This document shows, piece after piece, positions 1 to 24,355 of a stretch of 27,493 bases of DNA. Position numbers and translations under genes: made by a program. The notes under the pieces were generated by a model that worked only from the letters and a program-made list of their open reading frames with translations, ran no database searches and was not told where the DNA came from. Each line of letters opens with the position of its first letter. The stretch's first letter is position 1. The stretch comes from a virus (Duplodnaviria; Caudoviricetes), in the IMG/VR virus record IMGVR_UViG_3300032220_000965, positions 1-27,493 of that record; one strand, given 5' to 3'.

Positions 1-930
1 ACAGACAATATTTAGAGCAGACATACCACCATTACCTCCAATAAATGATTTAACACATATAGTACCTAAAACACCTATATATACACTTTCATATACAACA
101 TCATTACAGTCTATATAACTAACTACTAAAGTACTTCCTGAGTAATTAATATATCCATAACAAACAGCTTCTGGAGGAGTAGGACTTGGTGTAATTGTAG
201 GTGTTAGACTAGGGGTTGTACTAATTGTAGGTGTTAGACTAGGGGTTGTACTAATTGTAGGTGTTACAGATATGCTTGGTGTAATACTAATGGTAGGAAT
301 TATGCTTGTAGTAATACTTGGAGTCACACTAATTGTAGGTGTTGCACTAATTGTAGGTGTAACAGATATAGTTGGAGTCACTGATGGAGTAACTGTTGGA
401 GTAACTGTAGGAGTAACACTTATTGAAGGTGTTGTTGTTGGAGAAGAATATGGTGTTCTTGATGGAGATGGAGTTGGAGTAAAATAAGGTTTTTCAATCC
501 ATTGAGTATCAAACTTCACTAAGAAAGTCATATCTGTATTAGCAGATATTGGTGTTGGAGCAGCCATTTTAGCTACTGCTAATAATTCTTGAGCATCATT
601 ATATAAACCAATAGTACTAACATATGGCGAAAATGATGATGTTCCATCAGATGATATTATAGAACCAGTGACAAAATCCTTTAATATTCCAAAATATTTA
701 GATTCTGTTATTTCATAAAATGTCTCACTACCTGTCACCGCGCTACTTCCTGATCCACTTTTATAAGTAAATGGGTAAAGTGTTGCTTGAGAACCTGATA
801 ATAGAGTTGGATTATAACTTAGATTAAATTCATAGTCCTTTATAGTACACTTAATAAAATTCTCATAAACAACGTGGTTGTTTTTGAATTTTACTTCTGT
901 AAGGTTTATATCTAAGTTTCTTGTGCTCAT
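1..930 (-). CDS. Partial CDS (runs off the left edge; absent from the ORF track): C-terminal half of a tail-collar/baseplate-like protein + Thr/Pro stalk + Cys-containing tip
   Basis: ATG at 930, open to position 1: MSTRNLDINLTEVKFKNNHVVYENFIKCTIKDYEFNLSYNPT...YVSTIGLYNDAQELLAVAKMAAPTP...FLVKFD, then TP repeats, then EAVCYGYINYSG...IDCND...ICVKS. EFNLSYNPT and IGLYNxxxxLLAVAK match the C-terminus of the 2891-3967 protein. Confidence 0.85.
   Translation of the reverse strand, partial: MSTRNLDINLTEVKFKNNHVVYENFIKCTIKDYEFNLSYNPTLLSGSQATLYPFTYKSGSGSSAVTGSETFYEITESKYFGILKDFVTGSIISSDGTSSFSPYVSTIGLYNDAQELLAVAKMAAPTPISANTDMTFLVKFDTQWIEKPYFTPTPSPSRTPYSSPTTTPSISVTPTVTPTVTPSVTPTISVTPTISATPTISVTPSITTSIIPTISITPSISVTPTISTTPSLTPTISTTPSLTPTITPSPTPPEAVCYGYINYSGSTLVVSYIDCNDVVYESVYIGVLGTICVKSFIGGNGGMSALNIVC
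172..480 (-). repeat. Coding Thr/Pro-rich repeat (TPTISV / TPSI / TPTV units), ~103 aa
   Basis: Translation shows 4- and 6-residue units; includes an exact 30-nt tandem repeat (taattgtaggtgttagactaggggttgtac x2.5) at 192-266. Confidence 0.95.
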
Positions 931-939
931 TTTAAATTA

Positions 940-1584
940 TTAACATATTATATTACATAATGAAGTACAATTTTTAGTACCTGAACCACTTATATTAGTT
1001 ATTAATGATACAGTTTGTGATATTTGATTTGCAATAGTGAATATATAACAGTTGTTATAGTCAAAATAATACTTACCTGCTTCAATAGATATTGGTGTTG
1101 CGTTTGCAATATTAATAGTTTCTACAAAAGTACAATATCCACCTATACATTCATATCTATCAGCACTATAGTAATAATAAACAGGTATACTTGCTGGTAT
1201 ACTAGGTGTAATACTTGGAGTTTTACTTATAGTAGGAGTAATACTTGGAGTTTTACTTATAGTAGGAGTAATACTAATTGTAGGTGTTATACTTGGTGTT
1301 AAACTAATAGTTGGTGTTATTGTTGGCGTTACACTTATACTTGGAGTTACACTTATACTAGGTGTTACTGTAGGTGTTACTGTAGGAGTAATACTTGGTG
1401 TTACACTTATTGTTGGTGTGACACTAGGACTAACTGATGGTAAAGGACAATATGTTAGGTCTAAAACAGGAGCAATATAGTCAGGATCACTAACACTATT
1501 TGTTTTAGTGGTACCTGTAGCGACACCACTATCTACATAGTATTGTTCTAGGTCTGTATATGCTTTAAATCCTGTATTACTCAT
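940..1584 (-). CDS. Putative virion appendage protein: 47-aa N-terminal module + Thr/Pro stalk + Cys/Tyr-rich tip
   Basis: 214 aa; N-terminal NTGFKAYTDLEQYY...PDYIAPVLDLTYCP, TP repeats, C-terminal ~80 aa with 6 Cys; sits in the structural block with an upstream ATATTTATA motif. Confidence 0.75.
   Translation of the reverse strand: MSNTGFKAYTDLEQYYVDSGVATGTTKTNSVSDPDYIAPVLDLTYCPLPSVSPSVTPTISVTPSITPTVTPTVTPSISVTPSISVTPTITPTISLTPSITPTISITPTISKTPSITPTISKTPSITPSIPASIPVYYYYSADRYECIGGYCTFVETINIANATPISIEAGKYYFDYNNCYIFTIANQISQTVSLITNISGSGTKNCTSLCNIIC
1183..1440 (-). repeat. Coding Thr/Pro-rich repeat, ~86 aa
   Basis: PSVSPSVTPTISVTPSITPTV...; exact 30-nt tandem repeat (gtaatacttggagttttacttatagtagga x2.3) at 1208-1275. 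Confidence 0.95.
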
Positions 1585-1588
1585 CTAA

Positions 1589-1597
1589 TATAAATAT
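1589..1597 (-). promoter_or_regulatory. ATATTTATA motif, candidate late promoter
   Basis: Identical 9-mer found in six intergenic gaps; here 4 nt upstream of the ATG at 1584. Confidence 0.6.
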
Positions 1598-1602
1598 TTT
1601 TA

Positions 1603-2880
1603 TTAATAGCTTCTTAAATTTATTTCAACACTATCACCTTGTGCTATAGTAAAGCTAGTTGGGAATCCATAAATACCATCTCCAGTAACTGCAACGTAAC
1701 TAATTAAAATATTATTAATATATACATTTAGATATAATCCACTAGCTCCAGATACAGTTATAGATATTGTTCCATTATACACTCCATGAGTACCAATAGC
1801 TGTTTGTCCTCCTGCTAATGGAATACCTCCTGAAGTTAATACAAAGAAAGCAGGATCAATACTGTCTATTGATGCTCCAAAGCCGCCGTAATTATAAATT
1901 GCTATAGGACCATCAGTAGGTGTTGATGTAGAAGGTGTTATAGTTGGTGTTAAACTAATTGTAGGTGTGATACTAGGTGTAATACTGATTGTTGGAGTAA
2001 CACTTATTGTAGGTGTCACAGATATTGTTGGTGTTACACTGATTGTTGGAGTAATACTTATAGTTGGGGTAATACTTGGAGTTACACTAATTGTTGGTGT
2101 GATACTAGGTGTTACACTAATAGTTGGAGTTACTGATGGAGTAACTGTTGGTGTTACTGTTACACTAATTGTTGGTGTTACTGTTATTGATGGTGTTACA
2201 CTAGGAGAAGGAGATGCTTGAACACAATATGGATTTATACCTCTCCATGCCTTAGCTCTTACACTATTAGGAATAACAGTTATTATAGCTACATTTTGTT
2301 CGTAAAATACATTACCAACTTGTGAACCATAAGTTAACGTAGTTCCTATAGATGAAACTACACTACTTCCACTATAAAGTAAATTATAATTTCCATCATC
2401 ATATAATTTAAATGATGTTGAACCTGTTGTGAAATAAGCTTCAAATGTAGTAGGTAATATTTTATCACTAGTTAAATTTCTAGGTATGTTTAAAACATAA
2501 ATAGAAGCATTAGCGCCAGTTGGAAAATATTTTATTGTATCTGCGTTACCTAATTCAACGTGTCCTCTAAAATAAGAAGATGTTGTTAATGTACCATCAT
2601 TAAGTAAAGTATTTTGTCTAGAGGATGTATCAACATATCTAGGTAAAAAATTAGGATAATAAATCATATTGATAGAGTCGTAAACTAATCTATCATATTG
2701 GCCATTAGTAATGTATTCTGAAACTGGATCGAATATTGATCCACTATAATTAGTCCCTATGTTAACATTTATTTTATTAGCGGTAAAAGACCCTGAGGTG
2801 ATATCCCAGCTTTTATTCGCTGTATATGGTACTACAAAAGTATCAGATACATTAAGTCTTTTATACACATTTGCTGACAT
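1603..2880 (-). CDS. N-terminal half of a tail-collar/baseplate-like protein + Thr/Pro stalk + beta-rich tip domain
   Basis: 425 aa; VLNIPRNLTSDKILPTTF...LYDDG...VGNVFYEQNVAIIT parallels VISVARSRFKESFNPGSF...LVDDS...YGIMIPDEGLIILN in the 358-aa neighbour; then WRGINPYCVQ, TP repeats and a ~100-aa Gly/Ile/Tyr-rich tip. Confidence 0.8.
   Translation of the reverse strand: MSANVYKRLNVSDTFVVPYTANKSWDITSGSFTANKINVNIGTNYSGSIFDPVSEYITNGQYDRLVYDSINMIYYPNFLPRYVDTSSRQNTLLNDGTLTTSSYFRGHVELGNADTIKYFPTGANASIYVLNIPRNLTSDKILPTTFEAYFTTGSTSFKLYDDGNYNLLYSGSSVVSSIGTTLTYGSQVGNVFYEQNVAIITVIPNSVRAKAWRGINPYCVQASPSPSVTPSITVTPTISVTVTPTVTPSVTPTISVTPSITPTISVTPSITPTISITPTISVTPTISVTPTISVTPTISITPSITPTISLTPTITPSTSTPTDGPIAIYNYGGFGASIDSIDPAFFVLTSGGIPLAGGQTAIGTHGVYNGTISITVSGASGLYLNVYINNILISYVAVTGDGIYGFPTSFTIAQGDSVEINLRSY
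1915..2217 (-). repeat. Coding Thr/Pro-rich repeat, ~101 aa
   Basis: ASPSPSVTPSITVTPTISV...TPTISVTPTISVTPTISITPSI...; degenerate 12/18-nt units in the DNA. Confidence 0.95.
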
Positions 2881-2890
2881 GGGCGTAACA

Positions 2891-3967
2891 TTAGAAGTCT
2901 AATTTAACTCTTAATAATAATTCTTTAGTAAAGTCTTTCACTAATGGTTTATTTAATTTAGCTACAGCTAATAAATCACCAGTATTATTATATAAACCTA
3001 CAGTTGTAATAAATGTTTGAGGATTATATACTAATTGAGTATAAAGTAAGTTACCGTTTGAATCAATTACTGTTGGGTTAGTTGTATAGTTAAATTCACT
3101 GTTTTTAACACGAGTGAAGAAATAACGTGATGATATTGTTTCGTAGCTTTGTAAACTAAATGTTGGAGCAGTTGGTGTTGTTGCAATCATATTATAAACC
3201 ATTCTGTTATTAAGGTTATAAGATGAAATTGCAGAGAAGAATGTTGCTGCTTGTGATGAACTAAATTCATTAAATACAGCGCCTACTCCACCTAATGCAC
3301 CAGTTGGTAAAGATAATGCTCTTGGGTTTAATATAATTAATCCTTCATCAGGAATCATGATACCATAAGATCCACTAGGTGTGTAGTTAGAGGAAGATGG
3401 GGTAGCTAATCCTGTACCAATACTATAAGAACCACTCAATAATTGATAAACACGAGATGTACCAACATAAGTAGAAGTTGTTGTAACTGTAGAGTCATCT
3501 ACTAAACCAATTTGGTTAGAACCACTCTTCAATGTTAAAAAGAAAGAACCTGGGTTGAATGATTCTTTAAAACGAGATCTAGCTACAGATATAACAACAA
3601 TATCTTTTGATGGATTTGATGTTGTACCAAAAGTAAATGATGAATTTTCATCACCGTATATTAATGATCTAAATTGACCATAAACATCTCTAGTTGGAGT
3701 TTTATCAGGTACTAAAGCATTAAAATAAGCTGAACCTGAACCACTGATATGACCATAAGATATTGAGAATTGATTCTCAGCAGATTGAGTAGCGGCAGCA
3801 TCTACAGCATATACATTAAGGAAAAATTTGCCTTGACTTGTTGCTTGTTCTTGGTTTGACCAACTATAAAAAGTATTTAACTGAGTTAAATTATTACTCC
3901 ACATAGGAGCTACTATAGCATCAGAGCTAAGTACTTGGTCATCGTTTGCGTATGTTCCGAAAGACAT
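2891..3967 (-). CDS. Baseplate/tail-collar-like structural protein
   Basis: 358 aa; C-terminal ITTVGLYNNTGDLLAVAKL...RVKLDF resembles the 'GLYxxxGxLIAV' strand motif of tail-collar fibre and baseplate wedge proteins; structural context. Confidence 0.65.
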   Translation of the reverse strand: MSFGTYANDDQVLSSDAIVAPMWSNNLTQLNTFYSWSNQEQATSQGKFFLNVYAVDAAATQSAENQFSISYGHISGSGSAYFNALVPDKTPTRDVYGQFRSLIYGDENSSFTFGTTSNPSKDIVVISVARSRFKESFNPGSFFLTLKSGSNQIGLVDDSTVTTTSTYVGTSRVYQLLSGSYSIGTGLATPSSSNYTPSGSYGIMIPDEGLIILNPRALSLPTGALGGVGAVFNEFSSSQAATFFSAISSYNLNNRMVYNMIATTPTAPTFSLQSYETISSRYFFTRVKNSEFNYTTNPTVIDSNGNLLYTQLVYNPQTFITTVGLYNNTGDLLAVAKLNKPLVKDFTKELLLRVKLDF

Positions 3968-3974
3968 ATTTTAA

Positions 3975-4643
3975 TTAGGTTTTAATTAATGTTAAAGGTA
4001 TAGTAAATCTAGCTCCACTATCTCTACCCATTGCTGTTATTGTAGTTGAAATTGAAGCACCAGCAACTGCACTTGTTGGAAATAAAGTGTTAATTGTTGT
4101 TGCAATTAAACTAAATGAAGTACCAACTTGAGTAGCTGATAAACTAGCGCCACTTGCATTTGGTGTTGGAGCAGTGATGTTTAATCCTGTTGTGTCAATA
4201 CCAGTACCAGTGAATGTACTTAAGAATCTTGAGTCTCCCACAGTTAATAAATAGCCTGATGGTTCAAATGTTGAAACAGCACCTAAGTAGTTTAATGTTT
4301 GAGGAGTAATATTGATAGATGCAGCTTGACGTAATGATACAGCTGTATACCCTAGATTTAACACAGGTAATTTACTTGTACCACGATTAAGTGTAACTAA
4401 CTTATACTTCATGATTTGTGTCTCATCTACAAATGCTTCTAATAAAGGCATAGCCTCAATTGCTTCTCCGAAGAAAGCAGATCCTGATGGATGGGTTGGG
4501 TTGTAAAGAGTATAATCAATTTCATCATCAGCTAATGCGAATTGAGTTATTTGAAAAGACCCGTCATTACGAGCTAACAATTCACGGCCTTTCTTTGTTA
4601 GGACCGCGTCAATTGTTACATATTGGTTATTTAAATACGCCAT
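3975..4643 (-). CDS. Structural protein with tail-collar-fibre-like N-terminus
   Basis: 222 aa; DAVLTKKGRELLA...FQITQFALADDEIDY resembles the 'LTxxGxxxLA...ITxxAxGD' start of tail-collar fibre proteins; Ser/Thr-rich beta-type C-terminus. Confidence 0.6.
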   Translation of the reverse strand: MAYLNNQYVTIDAVLTKKGRELLARNDGSFQITQFALADDEIDYTLYNPTHPSGSAFFGEAIEAMPLLEAFVDETQIMKYKLVTLNRGTSKLPVLNLGYTAVSLRQAASINITPQTLNYLGAVSTFEPSGYLLTVGDSRFLSTFTGTGIDTTGLNITAPTPNASGASLSATQVGTSFSLIATTINTLFPTSAVAGASISTTITAMGRDSGARFTIPLTLIKT

Positions 4644-4660: not shown

Positions 4661-4669
4661 TATAAATAT
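4661..4669 (-). promoter_or_regulatory. ATATTTATA motif, candidate late promoter
   Basis: In the 27-nt gap, 17 nt upstream of the ATG at 4643. Confidence 0.6.
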
Positions 4670-11056: not shown

Positions 11057-11065
11057 TATAAATAT
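11057..11065 (-). promoter_or_regulatory. ATATTTATA motif, candidate late promoter
   Basis: Intergenic, 20 nt upstream of the ATG at 11036. Confidence 0.6.
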
Positions 11066-11691: not shown

Positions 11692-13575
11692 TTAATATGT
11701 TACAATACGGCCATAAATATCAGAGTCAGGATATCTTACTTCAAAGATCATTGGATCTAGAGATGGATAAACAACACCTTGTTTTGTAGCTGCTTGAATA
11801 TCATAACTGTATGTGGAATACTGTCCACCTGTTAGGTTTATAATATTTACTTTAATTACTGATTGTACACCTTTGACAGTACCTAATAAATTGTAAATAT
11901 CTGAATGTATTATTGGTTGGTTAATTTGCCATTTAGCTATATTGAAATAGTCTTTTAGAGCATTAATACATTTAGTTAATACATCTTGTGAATTATAAGC
12001 GGGTAACACAGTTATATCAAAGCTAATTTTAATATTAGTGTAATAAGCATCCTTAATAATAACAGCATCGCTCATCATTTTATTATATGATAAGTATGTT
12101 TTTAGATTTTGTTTTATAACATCTGATGCTTTTATCATTTTGCTGTTTATATCTGTTGATAAAACATAAATAGAAAGAGATAATGGATTAGTATTTAAGA
12201 AATTTTGTCGGTCAGTATCTTTTGATACTAAAGCATCTTGTGTTACATAAGCTTTACTTATATAACCATATTTAGCAGGTAATGATAAAGCACGAACTAA
12301 ATAGTCAGCTTTAGTAACGTTTCTATTTTGAGTTGGGAAATTAGCTAATGCTTGTAAACGAATTTGTTCAGTTGTTTCGCCAGGTCCACCTCCAGATGAT
12401 GGAAAAGGATTATTAAATCTAAGTGAATCTTGTACTGTTGTTACTAATGATGAATTTAAATTATAAGTATTAATAGAAGTATTAACATTATCATTTAAAC
12501 CAATATCATCTGATGGTAGGTTAGCTTCAGTACCACCGCCTACTAAATAAGTTACTGTTAAAGTAGTATTTGCTGGTGCAGAACCATATTCATTTGTATA
12601 TTGGAAATTGGATGGATCATAAGCCATAGTTAATTTACTAATACCATCCACTAAACCTATACCTACATTGTCAGGATTTGGAATAATTGTTTCATCAGGT
12701 ACTGATATGACACCACTACCAAATTCTAATTTTAAGTTATTATCATCATCAAAACGAGCAGCAAAACGTTTTTGTACTTTTTTTAAACGTAATAAGAAAC
12801 GAGCATTATCATCTTGAGTATAATAATTAGGTTCGTTTACTGGTAGATTTAATGACTCATCAAATATTGTATCTTGAGCTAAATAAGGTACTTCATACCA
12901 TTGATTATTATCACTATCAGTCACACCTAATACTTGAATAATATTAGTATCAGTTATAGTAATGATAGGAAATTGTTCTGGATTACCAAAAGTAAATTCT
13001 GTTGACTTAATTTGTCCTGATATTGCTCCTATTTGTTTTTTAAGCAAATAGTATGAAGGTTGACTATTATAAGGACCACTAGTATAGTATTGATATATTG
13101 TTACTACTGTGGGATCAAATGATGAAGAAAATCCAAAATCAATTATATCTTGAGTTAAAAATGTAATATCCGGTCTTGATGTTGATTTAATAGTTGAGTT
13201 TCTATCAACCTTTAAAACGTATCTATAATCAGGAATAAATCCATTACTTACATTTGAAGGTACAATTTGATACGCATCTAATATAACAGATGATGTTGTA
13301 GTTATTTTAGGTCTGTAACCTAAAGCATATGCTAAAGCAATAATATTCTTTCTTTCTTGAGCGTATAATAATAATGTTTCTTGTAATTGTGTATCAGTAT
13401 AAAATGATAATACATCACCTATATATGCAGCCATTTCGATAAACATGTTACCAGGAGCAGATGGACTAAAGTCCATATAACTGTTTTGGAAATATGTTTT
13501 AGCATAATTAATTAAATTTTGCTTTAGAGTACTAAAGTCTTTATCAAAATATTTTATATCTGGTTGGTTTGCCAT
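11692..13575 (-). CDS. Baseplate wedge subunit (T4 gp6 / baseplate J-like)
   Basis: 627 aa; DKDFSTLKQNLINYAK...DVLSFYTD...LAYALGY, LEFGSG, GGGPGET, QNRNVTKADY; directly follows a gp25-like gene. Confidence 0.9.
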   Translation of the reverse strand: MANQPDIKYFDKDFSTLKQNLINYAKTYFQNSYMDFSPSAPGNMFIEMAAYIGDVLSFYTDTQLQETLLLYAQERKNIIALAYALGYRPKITTTSSVILDAYQIVPSNVSNGFIPDYRYVLKVDRNSTIKSTSRPDITFLTQDIIDFGFSSSFDPTVVTIYQYYTSGPYNSQPSYYLLKKQIGAISGQIKSTEFTFGNPEQFPIITITDTNIIQVLGVTDSDNNQWYEVPYLAQDTIFDESLNLPVNEPNYYTQDDNARFLLRLKKVQKRFAARFDDDNNLKLEFGSGVISVPDETIIPNPDNVGIGLVDGISKLTMAYDPSNFQYTNEYGSAPANTTLTVTYLVGGGTEANLPSDDIGLNDNVNTSINTYNLNSSLVTTVQDSLRFNNPFPSSGGGPGETTEQIRLQALANFPTQNRNVTKADYLVRALSLPAKYGYISKAYVTQDALVSKDTDRQNFLNTNPLSLSIYVLSTDINSKMIKASDVIKQNLKTYLSYNKMMSDAVIIKDAYYTNIKISFDITVLPAYNSQDVLTKCINALKDYFNIAKWQINQPIIHSDIYNLLGTVKGVQSVIKVNIINLTGGQYSTYSYDIQAATKQGVVYPSLDPMIFEVRYPDSDIYGRIVTY

Positions 13576-13997
13576 TATTGTTTAGTTAAGTCGGTGGTTG
13601 AAACATTTATCACTAGATTATCATCTTGGTTATTTATTGAATAATCTATTATTAAGTTTACTAGATTTTCATCTGAATATTTTTTAATTCCTATATTACT
13701 AATAACAATATTAGGTACATAATTATATATTTCTTGTTCTAGTCTAACTGTTATACTATCAAAATTTGAATCAGGATCAAATAATGATGCTCTTAAATCT
13801 CCACCAAATGTTGGATCATAAAAACGTTCACCTTTATTAGTTAAAATATAATTAATTAAGTTAGATTTAACTTGTTCTTTAGTAGTAAATGTTTGATTAA
13901 AAACATTATTACCATTATTAAAAAGGACATTAATTCCAATACCTCGTTTTTGTCCAACGTCTTGTGGGTTTAGTGTATATGTAGGTCTTTTTAGCAT
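13575..13997 (-). CDS. Baseplate wedge / sheath initiator (gp25, GPW-like)
   Basis: QVKSNLINYILTNKGERFYDPTFGGDLRASLFDP is the gp25 family signature. Confidence 0.92.
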   Translation of the reverse strand: MLKRPTYTLNPQDVGQKRGIGINVLFNNGNNVFNQTFTTKEQVKSNLINYILTNKGERFYDPTFGGDLRASLFDPDSNFDSITVRLEQEIYNYVPNIVISNIGIKKYSDENLVNLIIDYSINNQDDNLVINVSTTDLTKQ

Positions 13998-14464: not shown

Positions 14465-14473
14465 TATAAATAT
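14465..14473 (-). promoter_or_regulatory. ATATTTATA motif, candidate late promoter
   Basis: In the 16-nt gap, 3 nt upstream of the ATG at 14461. Confidence 0.6.
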
Positions 14474-16037: not shown

Positions 16038-18056
16038 TTACCAATGATTTTCGTTTGGTCCAGTAAATGTCACAGCGTTTTTCATAACGCTACTTTTATA
16101 TGTGACTGTGCCTAAAGTAAATTCAGTAAGTATATCTAAAGAGTTTGGACGTCCTTTTTTAGCTTTACCAGGTAATTTACGCCAATCAGCATCACCCGCG
16201 TGAAATGCTTTACCGCTAAGAGCGTCTAAATAGAACTGATATGTACTTGATCTTGTATCAGACGTAAATCTATAAGGAGTAGCTTTAGGTAATGCATTTC
16301 CGGTAGTTGGATCTTTAGTGAACCAGCCTATACCTGTTCTACTTGACCATCCTAATCCCCATCTGTCACCAGGATATCCAACTAAGTTAAATAGATTTTT
16401 TTTACCACATTTTCTTTTCCAACCCCATAATACAATAAATGCTGCTTGAACATCACCTCCTAATTCTATATTCATTTTTTGAGCGTTTTGCCAAGTAGTA
16501 CCTTTACCCATTAAATTTTGTCCACCCCACATATTTTCAAAGGCAATACATTTAAATATATCAGGAGTGGTTTTATCTGATCCTTTACATGCAACATCCC
16601 AAACAACAACTTTAGCTATAGCACCAATAACAGATTTACCTGCTTCAGTATTTAATGATTTTAATTCAGTATCAGTACCAGTATATTGTCCTGGGAATAC
16701 TATTGGGGCATATTTTTTCCAAGTAGCAATTGTGCATCCCCAAGTTGTTAGTCCTCCACTATCTCCTCCTTCAGCAAATCCTCCTGCACCCTCCCATTGT
16801 AAAACATTAACCCACCATTTTAAAAATAATTGTCCGTCAGGAGTAGCAGAGGCGGATGCTTTAATAGCATCAGATAGAGCATCATAAGATCCACCACTTG
16901 ATTTCAATAATTTAGTATAGTCAGCGAGATTAAATTTAACTGTTGTTTCTATTTCAGGATTATCTAATAATTGTCCTTCGTCGTCTATTGCTTTAGCCAT
17001 ATCTTTAACTCTAACAGGATTTTGGTTTTCAACAGAAGGTAAAGTATCTAATATTTCTCCTTCTATTGCTAATTCATCATCATCAGTAGTGGGAGTAGTT
17101 GTTTGAGTTTTAGTAACTAAATTTAAACTATTTAAATCATTCCATTGAAAGAAAACTTCATATACATTATTATTATTAGGATCAGTAGTTTTTTCTGTAA
17201 AACTATATAATGGAAAATTTTGTTTTATAGTATCAAGATAAGCCCATCCGTTTCCATTAGTTGCATTCCATTTTGTAGAAGGAAAATTCCATGTTGTGGG
17301 TGCGCCTGTTGGAGAGTCAAAGGGAGTATTTCCATATATAGCTTTATAAGCATCTTGTTGAGCCATACCTAAAGTTCTTTGAGTAGTACTCCATGATCCT
17401 TTATGTTCAAAATTTACATATGCTTCAGTAGCTATAGGTACTTTCTTAAGAGGTATAGTTATAGTATAAGTGATAGGTGTTGTAGATTTATATTCTAATT
17501 TGATATTAAGTATATCAACTTTATGAAAGTCACCTGAGTTATATAATGATTTTAAATCATTACCTACTATTTTGGCTGCTACATTTGACAGCTGGTGTAA
17601 TGCATCAAAGTTATTAGCTGATTGGATAGCTAAATTAAATCCACTAACTCCTCTACTTTTTTCTTCAAATTTAAATGTCCATATATCTCCAGTTTTACTA
17701 TAAGTAACTTCAGGATCAGCTCCTTGAATAGCAGGTAAAATATTATTAGTTATATTTTCATTACTTGTTTCATAATTAATACATCCTAATTGATCAAGTT
17801 TAAAAAAAGGAGTATTAAATAAATCTTTACCAGCAGCAATCATTGTTCTATTATCTGCTGTTAAACCAACACTAGTACTCCATTTGGCATCCATTAATTG
17901 TTTTTTTAATTCATCATCAGGAGAGGTAAACTGAAATATATTACCATTAGTATCGAATAAAGTACCTTGACCATTAGCCCCCACAGATATTTTATATCCA
18001 GGATCTACTGTTGGGAAGTATTGAGAGGTATCTAATGATTTATTTTCTTCTGCCAT
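16038..18056 (-). CDS. Multi-domain baseplate-associated protein with C-terminal GH108-like lysozyme domain
   Basis: 672 aa; VLQWEGAGGFAEGGDSGGLTTWGCTIATW matches the GH108 EGG...DxGGxTxxGIT motif; downstream ELKSLNTE...WD...AFENMWGG parallels the GH108 'L..LT.....YW....FD..VNxG' segment. Confidence 0.65.
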   Translation of the reverse strand: MAEENKSLDTSQYFPTVDPGYKISVGANGQGTLFDTNGNIFQFTSPDDELKKQLMDAKWSTSVGLTADNRTMIAAGKDLFNTPFFKLDQLGCINYETSNENITNNILPAIQGADPEVTYSKTGDIWTFKFEEKSRGVSGFNLAIQSANNFDALHQLSNVAAKIVGNDLKSLYNSGDFHKVDILNIKLEYKSTTPITYTITIPLKKVPIATEAYVNFEHKGSWSTTQRTLGMAQQDAYKAIYGNTPFDSPTGAPTTWNFPSTKWNATNGNGWAYLDTIKQNFPLYSFTEKTTDPNNNNVYEVFFQWNDLNSLNLVTKTQTTTPTTDDDELAIEGEILDTLPSVENQNPVRVKDMAKAIDDEGQLLDNPEIETTVKFNLADYTKLLKSSGGSYDALSDAIKASASATPDGQLFLKWWVNVLQWEGAGGFAEGGDSGGLTTWGCTIATWKKYAPIVFPGQYTGTDTELKSLNTEAGKSVIGAIAKVVVWDVACKGSDKTTPDIFKCIAFENMWGGQNLMGKGTTWQNAQKMNIELGGDVQAAFIVLWGWKRKCGKKNLFNLVGYPGDRWGLGWSSRTGIGWFTKDPTTGNALPKATPYRFTSDTRSSTYQFYLDALSGKAFHAGDADWRKLPGKAKKGRPNSLDILTEFTLGTVTYKSSVMKNAVTFTGPNENHW

Positions 18057-18953: not shown

Positions 18954-18962
18954 TATAAATAT
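18954..18962 (-). promoter_or_regulatory. ATATTTATA motif, candidate late promoter at the head of the structural block
   Basis: Intergenic, 12 nt upstream of the ATG at 18941, right after the sigma gene. Confidence 0.6.
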
Positions 18963-20799: not shown

Positions 20800-20976
20800 T
20801 TATTCTTGTTCTGAATTGATTAATGTTCTAATTTCTTCAACTTTATTCTTTAATTCACTAAGCATGTCTTTAGCAAGTACAATAGTGAAGTTTGGATCTG
20901 AGAATTGTGCTCCGAATCCAATTAGCATGTTTTCTAATTGATCTAATTTTCTTTCAACTTGAGGTTTATATCTCAT
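20800..20976 (-). CDS. 58-aa hypothetical helical-hairpin protein (not in ORF track)
   Basis: MRYKPQVERKLDQLENMLIGFGAQFSDPNFTIVLAKDMLSELKNKVEEIRTLINSEQE; ATGA overlap with the upstream gene; fills the gap. Confidence 0.8.
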   Translation of the reverse strand: MRYKPQVERKLDQLENMLIGFGAQFSDPNFTIVLAKDMLSELKNKVEEIRTLINSEQE

Positions 20977-21290
20977 TTTATATAGTTTTTAATTATTGTT
21001 ACCAAATGTGGTATTGTATCGAATGTACGTAATTTATCTGTGGTAGCCAATTCTGTCTCACCCAGTATAACAATTGTGTCCTGTTTAGTCTCAATAAACA
21101 CAATCGGGTATGTGTCCGTTTTATATTCTTTCTCTACACTAGTAGAAAATTCATCAAATTTGTTAGCGTCAATGTCGACATAGGCTATTCCGCAACCGTC
21201 TAATTCACTTTTCAACCAAATGCAATAATCACAGTCACTTAACGTTAATACTCTAACTCCTACTTCTCCATTCATTCCTCTATTCCTCAT
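20973..21290 (-). CDS. Glutaredoxin/thioredoxin-fold protein
   Basis: VRVLTLSDCDYC (CxxC), YVDID, and TYPIVFI cis-Pro motif. Confidence 0.85.
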   Translation of the reverse strand: MRNRGMNGEVGVRVLTLSDCDYCIWLKSELDGCGIAYVDIDANKFDEFSTSVEKEYKTDTYPIVFIETKQDTIVILGETELATTDKLRTFDTIPHLVTIIKNYIK

Positions 21291-21531: not shown

Positions 21532-22722
21532 TTATTTAGTTATATATTTCACTAATTCTTTATTTAACATCATTAATTTAAATTTATTCGGATTACTATT
21601 ATAAATTGACTTAACCATATTATAACAAATATCTGTTGCGAATATTTTCTCGGTAACAATTTTACTGATACGTTCAATTAATGGTTTCTCAACTGCATTT
21701 TCTTTAGCATAAAATTCTAAATGGTTAGCAACCCTTGTTCCTAATGTAGCGGCAATATCTGCTCTATAGGCTTTATCTTTACCCACTAAACTTTTAAGTG
21801 TGTTCATCACATACTGTTCATCTTGACTCATAATATTTTCAGGCGAAATCATCTTATCCAATTTATTATTAATGAACATTGTGAACAAAGTACTAAACTC
21901 ACTACCAACACTACCTTCTCCAATCATTTGAATTAATGGTAATGAATCCTCAAACGATTTAATTGAACTAATACTATTAAAGAACATACTAACACTTCTA
22001 CTGTTCACTTCTTTAGTAACTAATTCTGGATGCATCAACATAAAGTTAATACAACGACCATCTAGTTTAGCTTGTTCAGCCCACTTACCCCAACATTTAA
22101 GATCAAACTTTAAATTAACACTAATAAATCTTGTTTTCTGAGCATTATCAATACTGTTAACTAAATAGTCTCCATTATCAGGATTAGCAGTTAATATGAT
22201 ATGCCAATCTTTAGGTAACTTCCAACTTATATATTGTTGGCGGTCAATCAACTCCATTACAGCTTGAATGAATCTCATATCAGCTCTATTCCAGTCATCT
22301 AATAATAGAATACCACCACTTTTTTTACCACTAATCCATTCAGGTGGACAATAACTCATACGATTCAAACCTGTAGATTCATAACCTTTCTTACGATAGT
22401 CCTCAACTGAATTTTCATCAACCCATTCACTTAACTTTTTATCCTTCATTTCAAATTGACGAATTGGAAAACCTACTAAGTCACCTATTTCCTCAATTTG
22501 AGCTAAGTTTAACTTAACGAAATTTAAATCTAATTCATCTGCTAATTGAACGATAGCAGATGTTTTACCAATACCACTATCACCTATAACTTCAGTTGAT
22601 ACCATTGGTTTATTATTTTCTTGTAGATAACGGTTGTTATCAATAATGTGTTTCAAAAAGTCCTTTAATTCATGGACATTTAATGATACAGTCGCGTTTT
22701 GTTTTTTACTTGTTTTTGCCAT
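21532..22722 (-). CDS. MoxR-family AAA+ ATPase
   Basis: Walker A GDSGIGKT, DLVGFP, Walker B ILLLDDWNRA, sensor TANP, TRF arginine finger; vWA gene nearby. Confidence 0.9.
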   Translation of the reverse strand: MAKTSKKQNATVSLNVHELKDFLKHIIDNNRYLQENNKPMVSTEVIGDSGIGKTSAIVQLADELDLNFVKLNLAQIEEIGDLVGFPIRQFEMKDKKLSEWVDENSVEDYRKKGYESTGLNRMSYCPPEWISGKKSGGILLLDDWNRADMRFIQAVMELIDRQQYISWKLPKDWHIILTANPDNGDYLVNSIDNAQKTRFISVNLKFDLKCWGKWAEQAKLDGRCINFMLMHPELVTKEVNSRSVSMFFNSISSIKSFEDSLPLIQMIGEGSVGSEFSTLFTMFINNKLDKMISPENIMSQDEQYVMNTLKSLVGKDKAYRADIAATLGTRVANHLEFYAKENAVEKPLIERISKIVTEKIFATDICYNMVKSIYNSNPNKFKLMMLNKELVKYITK

Positions 22723-22754
22723 TTTTTTACTTTTTATTTATACTTAAATTTATA

Positions 22755-23114
22755 TTATTTGTAGGGGTCAGTATATTTCAATTTATCAAGAGGATGTGGA
22801 TATGGACTATAATTCAATGACTCAGAAGTTGACTCATCATCAACATATAATGACTGTTCACGACTCATATTTTGTCTTTTATCTTCAAAATGAAATCGAA
22901 CACGATGTCCACCTTCAATATTACTAAACACAGCAAATCTTAATCCTGGACATTCATTCATTAGGTAATTCACTTGTTTAGTAATATTTGAGTTTTCAAA
23001 ATTAGCATTGTTTAATAATGTTAATGCTATTCGAATATCATCTACATTCCAACTTGTAAGCATATTCTTCAAGTTGTAAAGTTGGTCTTGATCTAAGTCA
23101 TGTATATTTTCCAT
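22755..23114 (-). CDS. Hypothetical protein within the MoxR/vWA cluster
   Basis: 119 aa; N-terminal LKNMLTSWNVDDIRIALTLLNN motif shared with the 24381-25505 protein. Confidence 0.75.
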   Translation of the reverse strand: MENIHDLDQDQLYNLKNMLTSWNVDDIRIALTLLNNANFENSNITKQVNYLMNECPGLRFAVFSNIEGGHRVRFHFEDKRQNMSREQSLYVDDESTSESLNYSPYPHPLDKLKYTDPYK

Positions 23115-23116
23115 TA

Positions 23117-24355
23117 TTATTTAATTTGCACTTTAGCTCCTGGTAAATCTTCATTAATACTTCTTCCTGAACAATGAACCCATAATGTTGGTTTACATGG
23201 TGCATCACTAACTGAACACTCACCATCAGTTAAATAAATTAAGTTTTGATACTTATCTTTATGGTTAAATAAATAATCTAATACTGGTTCATAACTTGTT
23301 CCTCCTCTACCTGATGCTTTATAATCATCTTGAAATTGTCCTTTATACTCATAAACATTTCCTATTTGAGCATCACACTCAATAACAGTCACTTCAGTAC
23401 CTGTTTTCCATATATGATGAATTTCACTTAAAAATTCTCTTAAATCATCATTTGAAACTGAACCTGAAGTATCAATAGCAACTAATGTATTTTTTCTTTG
23501 TTTAATTTTAAGAGCGGGGTTGCCATAGAAACGTTTATTTGGTTTACGTCTTGTTTTCTTAGTAAATACTTTACTAGCCATACCATTAAAACGTCTTAAA
23601 TAAGCTCTCCAATCAATAACAGCTTCTTCACTAACATATAAACTATCAATTAGTTCTTTTAACTCACCAGGTATATGTCCTCTTTGTTTTTGTACTTGAT
23701 TAGCAGTATCTTTTAATTGATGTTCAATTTGTTTCTCCATCAATTTCTTTTCTGCCTCGTCCATATTCTCATATTGTTTCCAAAACTCATGAGACGCTTT
23801 AACAGTTACTTTAGAACCGTCTGCTAAAGTTATTTCTCTAGGTTCACCATCACCATTAGCGCCTTTCATAGCATCTAACATCTTACAAACATCTCCATCT
23901 GGATTGTTTTTGCATTCCTTTAAAAGTAATTCATAATACTTTTTAGTACCTGCTTTTAAAGGCATCCCTAACTCTTTAAATGGAGAGTTAGTTATTTCTA
24001 AACCATCCCATGTTTTATCTTTATATTCGTCTTGAATATATTGATTAATTTCAATATCAGCAGCTACATTCAATAATGTTTTATCTTCATACTCATCATA
24101 CATTTGTAAGTGTTTAAATGCGATATGTAATAATTCATGTTTCAAAACAGCAACCTTACATCCATCACCTATTGTCTCCCAAAACTTAGGACTAATAACT
24201 AACTTAGTGTTAATACCATCTTTAGCAACACAAGCAGTTGCAACAGAATCACTTAATTCTTTATTCAAACCAATTAGGAACAATCCATAAAACGGTTCAC
24301 GAAACATTAATGTCTTGGAGTGTTTAGCTATATCACTGTGTATATTATCTATCAT
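23117..24355 (-). CDS. Zincin-like metallopeptidase + vWA domain protein (DUF2201-type)
   Basis: HELLH (HExxH) and NVAADIEINQ in the N-terminal part; IDWRAYL, MIDAS DTSGS, GRGGT and YLTDG in the vWA domain. Confidence 0.92.
   Translation of the reverse strand: MIDNIHSDIAKHSKTLMFREPFYGLFLIGLNKELSDSVATACVAKDGINTKLVISPKFWETIGDGCKVAVLKHELLHIAFKHLQMYDEYEDKTLLNVAADIEINQYIQDEYKDKTWDGLEITNSPFKELGMPLKAGTKKYYELLLKECKNNPDGDVCKMLDAMKGANGDGEPREITLADGSKVTVKASHEFWKQYENMDEAEKKLMEKQIEHQLKDTANQVQKQRGHIPGELKELIDSLYVSEEAVIDWRAYLRRFNGMASKVFTKKTRRKPNKRFYGNPALKIKQRKNTLVAIDTSGSVSNDDLREFLSEIHHIWKTGTEVTVIECDAQIGNVYEYKGQFQDDYKASGRGGTSYEPVLDYLFNHKDKYQNLIYLTDGECSVSDAPCKPTLWVHCSGRSINEDLPGAKVQIK

Follow-up and report, generated by a model that had tools for sequence, protein, structure and literature searches.

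In Lactococcus phage Tuc2009, an extension of about 25 residues on BppU is described as completing the β-sheet of a separately encoded adhesin, BppA, and attaching it to the baseplate (PMC4742702). A short peptide of one chain is likewise described as completing the fold of the other, and attaching an adhesin, in the PilC/PilY1-PilK system of type IV pili (PMC12918778). The nrdA gene of Aeromonas phage Aeh1 was broken by an insertion, both parts being kept and carrying insertion-derived tails, according to PMC3045599, and inter-chain disulfides are described as fastening the fibres of cyanophage Pam3 to its myophage baseplate (PMC9942802). Here we describe a locus that would work like the Tuc2009 joint combined with a split NrdA of the Aeh1 kind, and that by sequence is a member of neither. 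It occupies the first 3,967 nucleotides of a 27.5-kb fragment (27,493 nucleotides, 17% complete) of virus record IMGVR_UViG_3300032220_000965, referred to below as the window. Three genes, A, B and C, follow a conserved gene, P (Table 1). The reading we favour, with a probability of roughly 60%, is that A and C are the halves of a baseplate-cluster gene, Q, that is intact in relatives, that B plugs through its N-terminal 47 residues (the socket) onto a short tag on A, and that three stalked tips are displayed by the joined chains.

The likeness to Tuc2009, as far as its description goes, lies in a short segment of a baseplate protein that finishes the domain of an accessory adhesin; no sequence relation was sought or seen. 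By that description complementation has been shown for Tuc2009, whereas for the window phage we infer it. The donor segment is here about 8 residues long, undivided and tandem copies of the domain exist as well, each half has a single invariant Cys, and a long Thr/Pro (T/P) stalk carries the adhesin. NrdA is described as an enzyme that was split by a homing endonuclease and whose tails help the halves assemble, whereas the inserted material considered here, a display module, would bring in one more chain, the third. Pam3 is described as using Cys-rich wedge loops and trimeric fibres without a split domain, whereas a disulfide is here only proposed. PilC/PilY1-PilK, from its description, belongs to a bacterial pilus and its proteins are unrelated to those of the window phage. 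No description of the tag-socket module was found in a literature search of titles and the beginnings of abstracts.

The closest cultured relatives of the gene cluster are the Flavobacterium immuto phages, followed by Microcystis phage Mel-JY01. The order gp107-gp106-gp105 after the wedge genes of vB_FspM_immuto_2-6A (Immutovirus) is like that of the window, and the three products, like the paralogues of Mel-JY01, are annotated as hypothetical. Q is intact in immuto and Mel-JY01, without tag, B gene or T/P stalk, and annotated tail fibre and spike genes come next there.

A and C correspond to two halves of one gene, Q, left whole in relatives

The original prediction held that one gene, exemplified by the 358-aa product of P, had been cut into three open reading frames (ORFs). 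Intact proteins that cover A and C on a single chain were found, and they identify a different reference, namely Q, a neighbour that is missing as such from the window. Residues 1-211 of the intact 336-aa Q of locus L022 match A 1-215 (56%), and residues 210-335 match C 9-147 (60%), without overlap. Q is also an intact 336-aa protein in L023, and immuto gp105 is the same gene, its 357-aa product matching the A core (28%) and the C core (43%) on one chain. Among the best 120 of 360 Q matches, 21 carry both halves on one chain, 51 the N-terminal half only, 46 the C-terminal half only and 2 the N-terminal half with B, while none carries all three. A and C therefore come from one gene, and the full-length colinear homologues that the prediction looked for exist for these two parts, not for a chain with B in between. 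The first residues of C correspond to the linker found in intact proteins, P0131 for one, so that A and C between them make up the whole of Q.

The predicted homology of the A and C parts to P was upheld. Pairwise BLASTP of P gave E 0.043 against A, which is not significant, and 7e-7 against C, which is; profile-profile comparison of P gave 90.7% (E 1.2e-6) with the A core and 99.6% (E 1.3e-24) with the intact A+C orthologues, Q. On these profiles, P and Q are paralogues. P itself is 41% to immuto gp106, and of 7999 candidates compared with it 4774 were homologous at E≤0.001. Within the baseplate cluster, Q was confirmed to be the gene that directly follows the P orthologue.

Both halves are retained after the split. 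C follows A in all 37 split loci whose sequence reaches the downstream marker gene, and uncorrected ratios of nonsynonymous to synonymous differences (pN/pS; eight comparisons with the window) are 0.38 for the A core, 0.34 for the C core, 0.50 for the B socket, 0.61 for the tag region and 0.28 for P. Co-retention and these ratios show that A and C are kept genes under purifying selection and not in decay. As in Aeh1 NrdA, so far as that case is described, both parts of a broken gene have thus been kept.

We consider it likely, from sequence comparison, that A and C physically re-assemble. Were the halves instead no longer in contact, each would dock alone in the baseplate, with P or the 222-aa neighbour as a conceivable site, and the genes would make up a cassette of separately anchored fibres. 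Such an arrangement would suit the C cores that are also found as short stand-alone ORFs (138-157 aa), the position of the split in a linker whose length varies and which could separate two domains, and the five paralogues in a row in Mel-JY01, which would make other partners available. We regard it as improbable, given that both halves are kept in every complete locus and that the L022 group, with a linker of about 10 aa, is intact inside the split clade, as one would expect of halves that have remained spatial neighbours.

Two findings tell against re-assembly of A and C or lend it no help. The core of the C gene of L069 (7265-7638) contains an in-frame TAG, either a sequencing error or a recent break, and an AlphaFold2 model of intact Q, built from 14 sequences, reached a mean confidence (pLDDT) of 40.8, which is unusable as structural support. 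With this model Foldseek returned nothing at E≤0.001 and VIA-align nothing at Z≥5 (top ≤4.4), the model being too poor to speak on the fold. The gene in L070 resembles a frameshifted copy of the intact gene.

Family searches were largely silent. Pfam and NCBIfam scans of A, B, C and P gave no family, and the PHROGs database gave over the same four proteins only phrog_15511, of no named function, on the stalks. A PDB sequence search with the Q, P and B profiles returned 0, 0 and 7 chance rows (E 0.7-6.3), and matches in the ESM Atlas were to unnamed clusters only. Over P 291-340, phrog_4618 scored E 0.052 (5 of 71 members), and E 2.6e-4 for the window record, yet it also matches 3 of 14 controls; the signal is at most a faint resemblance between the C-terminal half and proteins of tail-collar fibres. 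A further lead, membership in the tail-collar fibre anchor family PF12571 (Phage_tail_fib), was dropped after no match at E≤1 was found in the window and none in the Pfam scans.

Other forms of the family were also seen. L284 (4992-7614), from a clade whose other Q genes are intact, has an A-like gene with T/P stalk and tip. A second stalk protein comes next and no C was seen; this is possibly an independent split. Mel-JY01 (L036, 13853-22799) has five P/Q paralogues in tandem, three of them much enlarged by N-terminal or internal additions, so that the P/Q fold takes extra domains in cis in Mel-JY01 and would take them in trans in the window phage. P0122, P0124, P0125, P0150, P0180 and P0190 are intact Q, C or tagged A proteins that have C-terminal domains and no T/P stalk. 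Those domains are PF07603 and PF09603 (precomputed assignments), the same termini here carrying catalogued domains directly.

B is not a piece of Q

The claim that B is the middle of the P/Q fold was ruled out. A profile comparison of B with intact Q gave no match (probability 0.04%), and a chain with N-terminal half, B and C-terminal half was absent both among the best 120 Q matches and among 76 distinct intact Q proteins. The B gene is missing from 12 of 37 complete split loci; where present, it can follow C (L060, L107) or stand behind other genes (L116), and this variable position implies that B acts apart from gene order. That the three genes lie in order and in one frame in the window had favoured a 358-aa-type gene cut into three same-frame fragments, a reading to which we now give almost no weight. 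The shared frame, taken in the original prediction as a sign of one gene, is a matter of chance: all three genes are in frame in 3 of 23 distinct A-B-C loci, where 2.6 would be expected at 1/9, and the A-B gap of the same-species locus L103 is 19 nt.

The predicted layout of the ORFs was itself accurate, all lying on the minus strand with gaps of 18 nt (A-B) and 9 nt (B-C), each preceded by TAA TAA; an extra TAG stands ahead of B. These stops, together with out-of-frame gaps in 20 of 23 loci including L103, make it very hard to sustain that A, B and C form one polypeptide through stop read-through or RNA or protein splicing, as the common frame in the window might suggest. Repeats can mislead assemblers, and the breaks could on that account be assembly errors; the split is, however, retained across dozens of independent assemblies. 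C has no stop inside the window, and in L103 it terminates one residue further.

B also differs from its neighbours in its upstream sequence. In 18 of 23 loci the motif TATTTAT stands no more than 30 nt ahead of B, and in none of the 23 does it stand ahead of A or C. The longer form, TATTTATA, with 8 sense copies and 1 antisense copy in the window, matches the T4 late promoter when reverse-complemented. It lies directly upstream of five genes, namely B (1589-1596) and those for products of 222 aa (4661-4668), 370 aa (11057-11064), 154 aa (14465-14472) and 119 aa (18954-18961), and is a candidate phage promoter element. No homing endonuclease was found in the A-C gap, where B is the sole gene and has no Pfam, NCBIfam or named PHROG match.

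A domain divided between A and B

The first 47 residues of B belong to a family of 614 proteins (representatives) at E≤0.001, over which no Pfam or NCBIfam family was found; a comparison of the socket with prokaryote genomes gave 5 weak partial matches. The best 150 socket proteins contain 106 N-terminal and 66 internal copies. Directly upstream of 40 of the 66 internal copies stands the pattern W-x(4-10)-C, compared with 63 of 6457 background windows. These 40 whole domains measure 58-73 aa, are often in tandem and keep both Cys residues throughout. A hidden Markov model (HMM) of their first segment, the tag, found in the window only A 209-221 (E 2.7e-6; next best 2.2). A single domain is thus divided over two genes, and undivided natural copies also exist, so that the locus contains a second gene fission besides that of Q. 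The A core, tag and socket form a single chain in L012, P0139 and P0147; L012 may be a later fusion, because its tip is of B type. L336 has a free internal tag one gene ahead of a socket gene.

Tag and B occur together. Of the 37 complete split loci, 25 have tag and B together (24 with a B gene, 1 in cis), 12 have neither and none is discordant, a count that omits 17 of 54 split A genes for which the interval was incomplete (6 with tag and B, 11 with neither, 0 discordant). Neither tag, stalk nor a nearby B gene was seen in any of 76 distinct intact Q proteins. The tag Cys, the sole Cys of A, is invariant in 26 of 26 aligned tags, as is Cys46 of B, and the presence of a conserved unpaired Cys on both partners was confirmed. 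Of 100 Cys-bearing tips, 82 have an even number of Cys, although these sequences are related; even counts are what disulfides within the tips would give, leaving one lone Cys each on tag and socket.

These patterns suggest that B probably docks on the tag, which would be β-strand in character; a disulfide between Cys219 of A and Cys46 of B has about even odds. The chief competitor, in our judgement unlikely, has A and C re-assemble while B, a stalked protein in its own right, uses its N-terminal domain to bind another virion or host surface, the A tag being a leftover of the insertion that split Q. B does have its own upstream motif, and several further observations count against docking. No tag lies in cis of 26 of the 66 internal copies (20 of these 26 at a C-terminus) or of any of the 106 N-terminal ones, and the untagged internal copies imply that the socket may fold or act without a tag. 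The tag region is the least constrained part of the locus, and L002 has Cys in place of the tag Trp. The co-occurrence lies mostly within one clade, and since the 37 loci are related, its perfection may reflect perhaps two or three events. In addition, the W of the 40 cis copies was fixed by the selection rule, and the training set of the tag HMM included an L339 protein orthologous to one of Chryseobacterium phage MA9V-3, a phage considered below. An independent B is in turn difficult to reconcile with the invariance of the tag Cys, with the joint loss of tag and B in all 12 complete tag-less loci, with eight A proteins among the best 120 Q matches that stop a few residues past the tag and have no stalk (ends taken from protein records, not DNA), and with the numbers of tags and sockets in MA9V-3.

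Tag and socket in a separate phage lineage

MA9V-3 is a myovirus by electron microscopy (PMC13120357). It encodes a 555-aa protein with three tags at its end, and the next three genes (products of 245, 117 and 428 aa) each start with a socket; one of them adds a whole tag-socket domain, and two carry Thr stalks and tips. The proteins concerned (XQU63073 to XQU63070) are all four annotated as hypothetical, and the portion of that paper available contains no discussion of them. BLASTP of the tag-bearing protein against P or Q gave no match, and MA9V-3 is an independent lineage for the tag-socket pairing. A 35%-identical orthologue of the 555-aa protein occurs in L339; this orthologue and its relative in L350 carry tag and socket twice in cis, followed by tips, one of the cis copies in L339 lying at 3944-4144.

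Stalks and tips

The layout predicted for A, B and C, an anchor followed by a Thr/Pro/Ser stalk and a tip, holds for all three, with stalks of 106, 86 and 110 aa (lengths from a window rule) and tips of 99, 82 and 54 aa. The tips are unrelated, as had been noted: they fall in three different families, that of B being counted through an identical copy in L103. Family scans of the tips gave nothing over the cut-off. Grouping of 88 distinct tips gave 41 families, 5 of which span different slots; in L001 and L003, for example, it is A that bears a tip of the window C family, the two being 57% identical across 54 aa (E 1.5e-21, tip set). Tips move between slots. Stalk length varies within the species, the B product having 214 aa in the window and 200 aa in L103, and that of C at least 310 and 301 aa, and tips are likely exchanged by recombination in the repeat DNA.

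Some stalks are much larger. A in L010 (10470-15656) has 1728 aa, of which about 1160 are stalk, and L116 (6288-8435) encodes, between A and B, a 715-aa protein with internally repeated stalk blocks. Two PF11397 (GT60-type) glycosyltransferase genes lie directly after a tag-less, stalked A in L145 (6290-8762), with no C within 4.4 kb of sequence; no glycosyltransferase gene of this type was seen in the window. A similar-looking gene of 301-304 aa follows socket and stalk genes in L037 (12396-13301) and L339 (4519-5433); it has no Pfam match over the cut-off and by eye is glycosyltransferase-like.

Order of events

A tree of P sequences, from which 8 of class "unknown" were excluded, comprised 68 intact loci, 25 with tag and B gene, 13 split without tag, 1 with fused tag and B and 3 truncated. 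All split forms fall in one clade (FastTree support 0.977) within the intact forms, with intact L022 among them. A tree of A cores (92 of 122 sequences kept once near-duplicates were removed) agrees, in that the L022 group adjoins the tag-less split clade (0.99) and is nested in tagged forms; its deep supports are moderate (0.75, 0.93 and 0.44). With that support, the trees suggest that a tag/B cassette entered the Q linker; tag and B would later have been lost jointly from one sub-clade, and the two halves would have become one chain again in the L022 group. The intact group of L022 and P0122-P0124 inside the split clade nevertheless makes this order of events tentative, a difficulty for this account.

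A model for the locus

In the mechanism we propose, insertion of the tag/B connector in the linker of Q would have split the gene and given A a free C-terminus. The A and C cores would re-form the Q subunit in the baseplate, the tag at the C-terminal side of A would recruit B through its socket, and a Cys219-Cys46 disulfide may lock B onto A. A, B and C would then each project a stalk and a variable tip for attachment, where the ancestor had no stalked tips. The predicted joining of three chains into a unit with three stalked tips is thereby kept in altered form: instead of being the third fragment of Q, B would complete an inserted second domain begun on A, and the re-assembly is one that we infer. 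Gene context suggests that A, B and C are located at the baseplate of the virion, and an adhesion role of the tips is plausible.

A broader proposal, which we put forward tentatively and on the strength of sequence patterns, is that the two-Cys domain of about 60 residues is a portable plug-and-socket. A tag of 8-10 residues (W-x6-8-C), at whatever site of a virion protein it stands, might capture any chain beginning or ending in the 47-residue socket and be locked by a disulfide, so that unrelated myophages could hang variable, stalked and possibly glycosylated adhesins on their baseplates, one per tag. At the present locus the insertion would have split the host gene into a three-armed hub whose tips are shuffled via repeat DNA. 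If the pairing is true, it would provide an attachment rule for at least 614 protein clusters without a Pfam or NCBIfam family, and would let these large myophages add and swap surface adhesins with the core baseplate untouched. Tag and socket would also form a natural connector of peptide and domain, very small and probably redox-locked, comparable in spirit to SpyTag/SpyCatcher. The A/C split alone is a sound, if lesser, result.

Genomic setting

Features of the locus are listed in Table 1. The genes of the window, on the minus strand, include those for gp25-like and gp6-like baseplate wedge proteins and an endolysin. The wedge genes were recognized by phrog_219 (E 2.8e-17) and phrog_261 (E 1.6e-14), with PF04965 over the cut-off, and they place the cluster in a contractile-tail baseplate module. 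The nearest cultured relatives point to a Bacteroidota host and a contractile tail for the window phage.

Table 1. Coordinates of the A-B-C locus and associated features in the window.
Feature	Position	Strand	Description
P	2891..3967	-	358 aa; conserved and intact; a paralogue of split gene Q and orthologous to immuto gp106
Gene A	1603..2880	-	425 aa; N-terminal half of Q, tag, stalk and tip
A core, aa 1-204	2269..2880	-	N-terminal half of Q
Tag WRGINPYC, A aa 212-219	2224..2247	-	First segment of the ~60-aa tag-socket domain
A stalk	1903..2220	-	~106 aa of T/P/S/I/V repeats
A tip	1606..1902	-	~99 aa, no Cys, no family over cut-off
TATTTATA motif	1589..1596	-	Precedes B; candidate promoter element
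Gene B	940..1584	-	214 aa; socket, stalk and tip
B socket, aa 1-47	1444..1584	-	Larger part of the tag-socket domain
B stalk	1189..1443	-	~86 aa
B tip	943..1188	-	~82 aa, six Cys
Gene C	1..930	-	310 aa seen; C-terminal half of Q, stalk and tip
C core, aa 1-146	493..930	-	C-terminal half of Q, beginning in the old linker
C stalk	163..492	-	~110 aa
C tip	1..162	-	54 aa seen, four Cys
222-aa conserved neighbour upstream	3975..4643	-	Orthologue of immuto gp107, 62.5%
Baseplate wedge genes, gp6-like (627 aa) and gp25-like (140 aa)	11692..13997	-	Contractile-tail baseplate module

Elsewhere in the window, a glutaredoxin gene lies at 20973-21290 (PF00462 over the cut-off), and neighbouring genes at 21532-24355 encode an AAA ATPase (396 aa) and a DUF2201 vWA/metallopeptidase-like protein (412 aa). 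Among the tail-module genes, 16038-18056 encodes a 672-aa protein without a family match, and its position suggests a hub or spike-associated protein.

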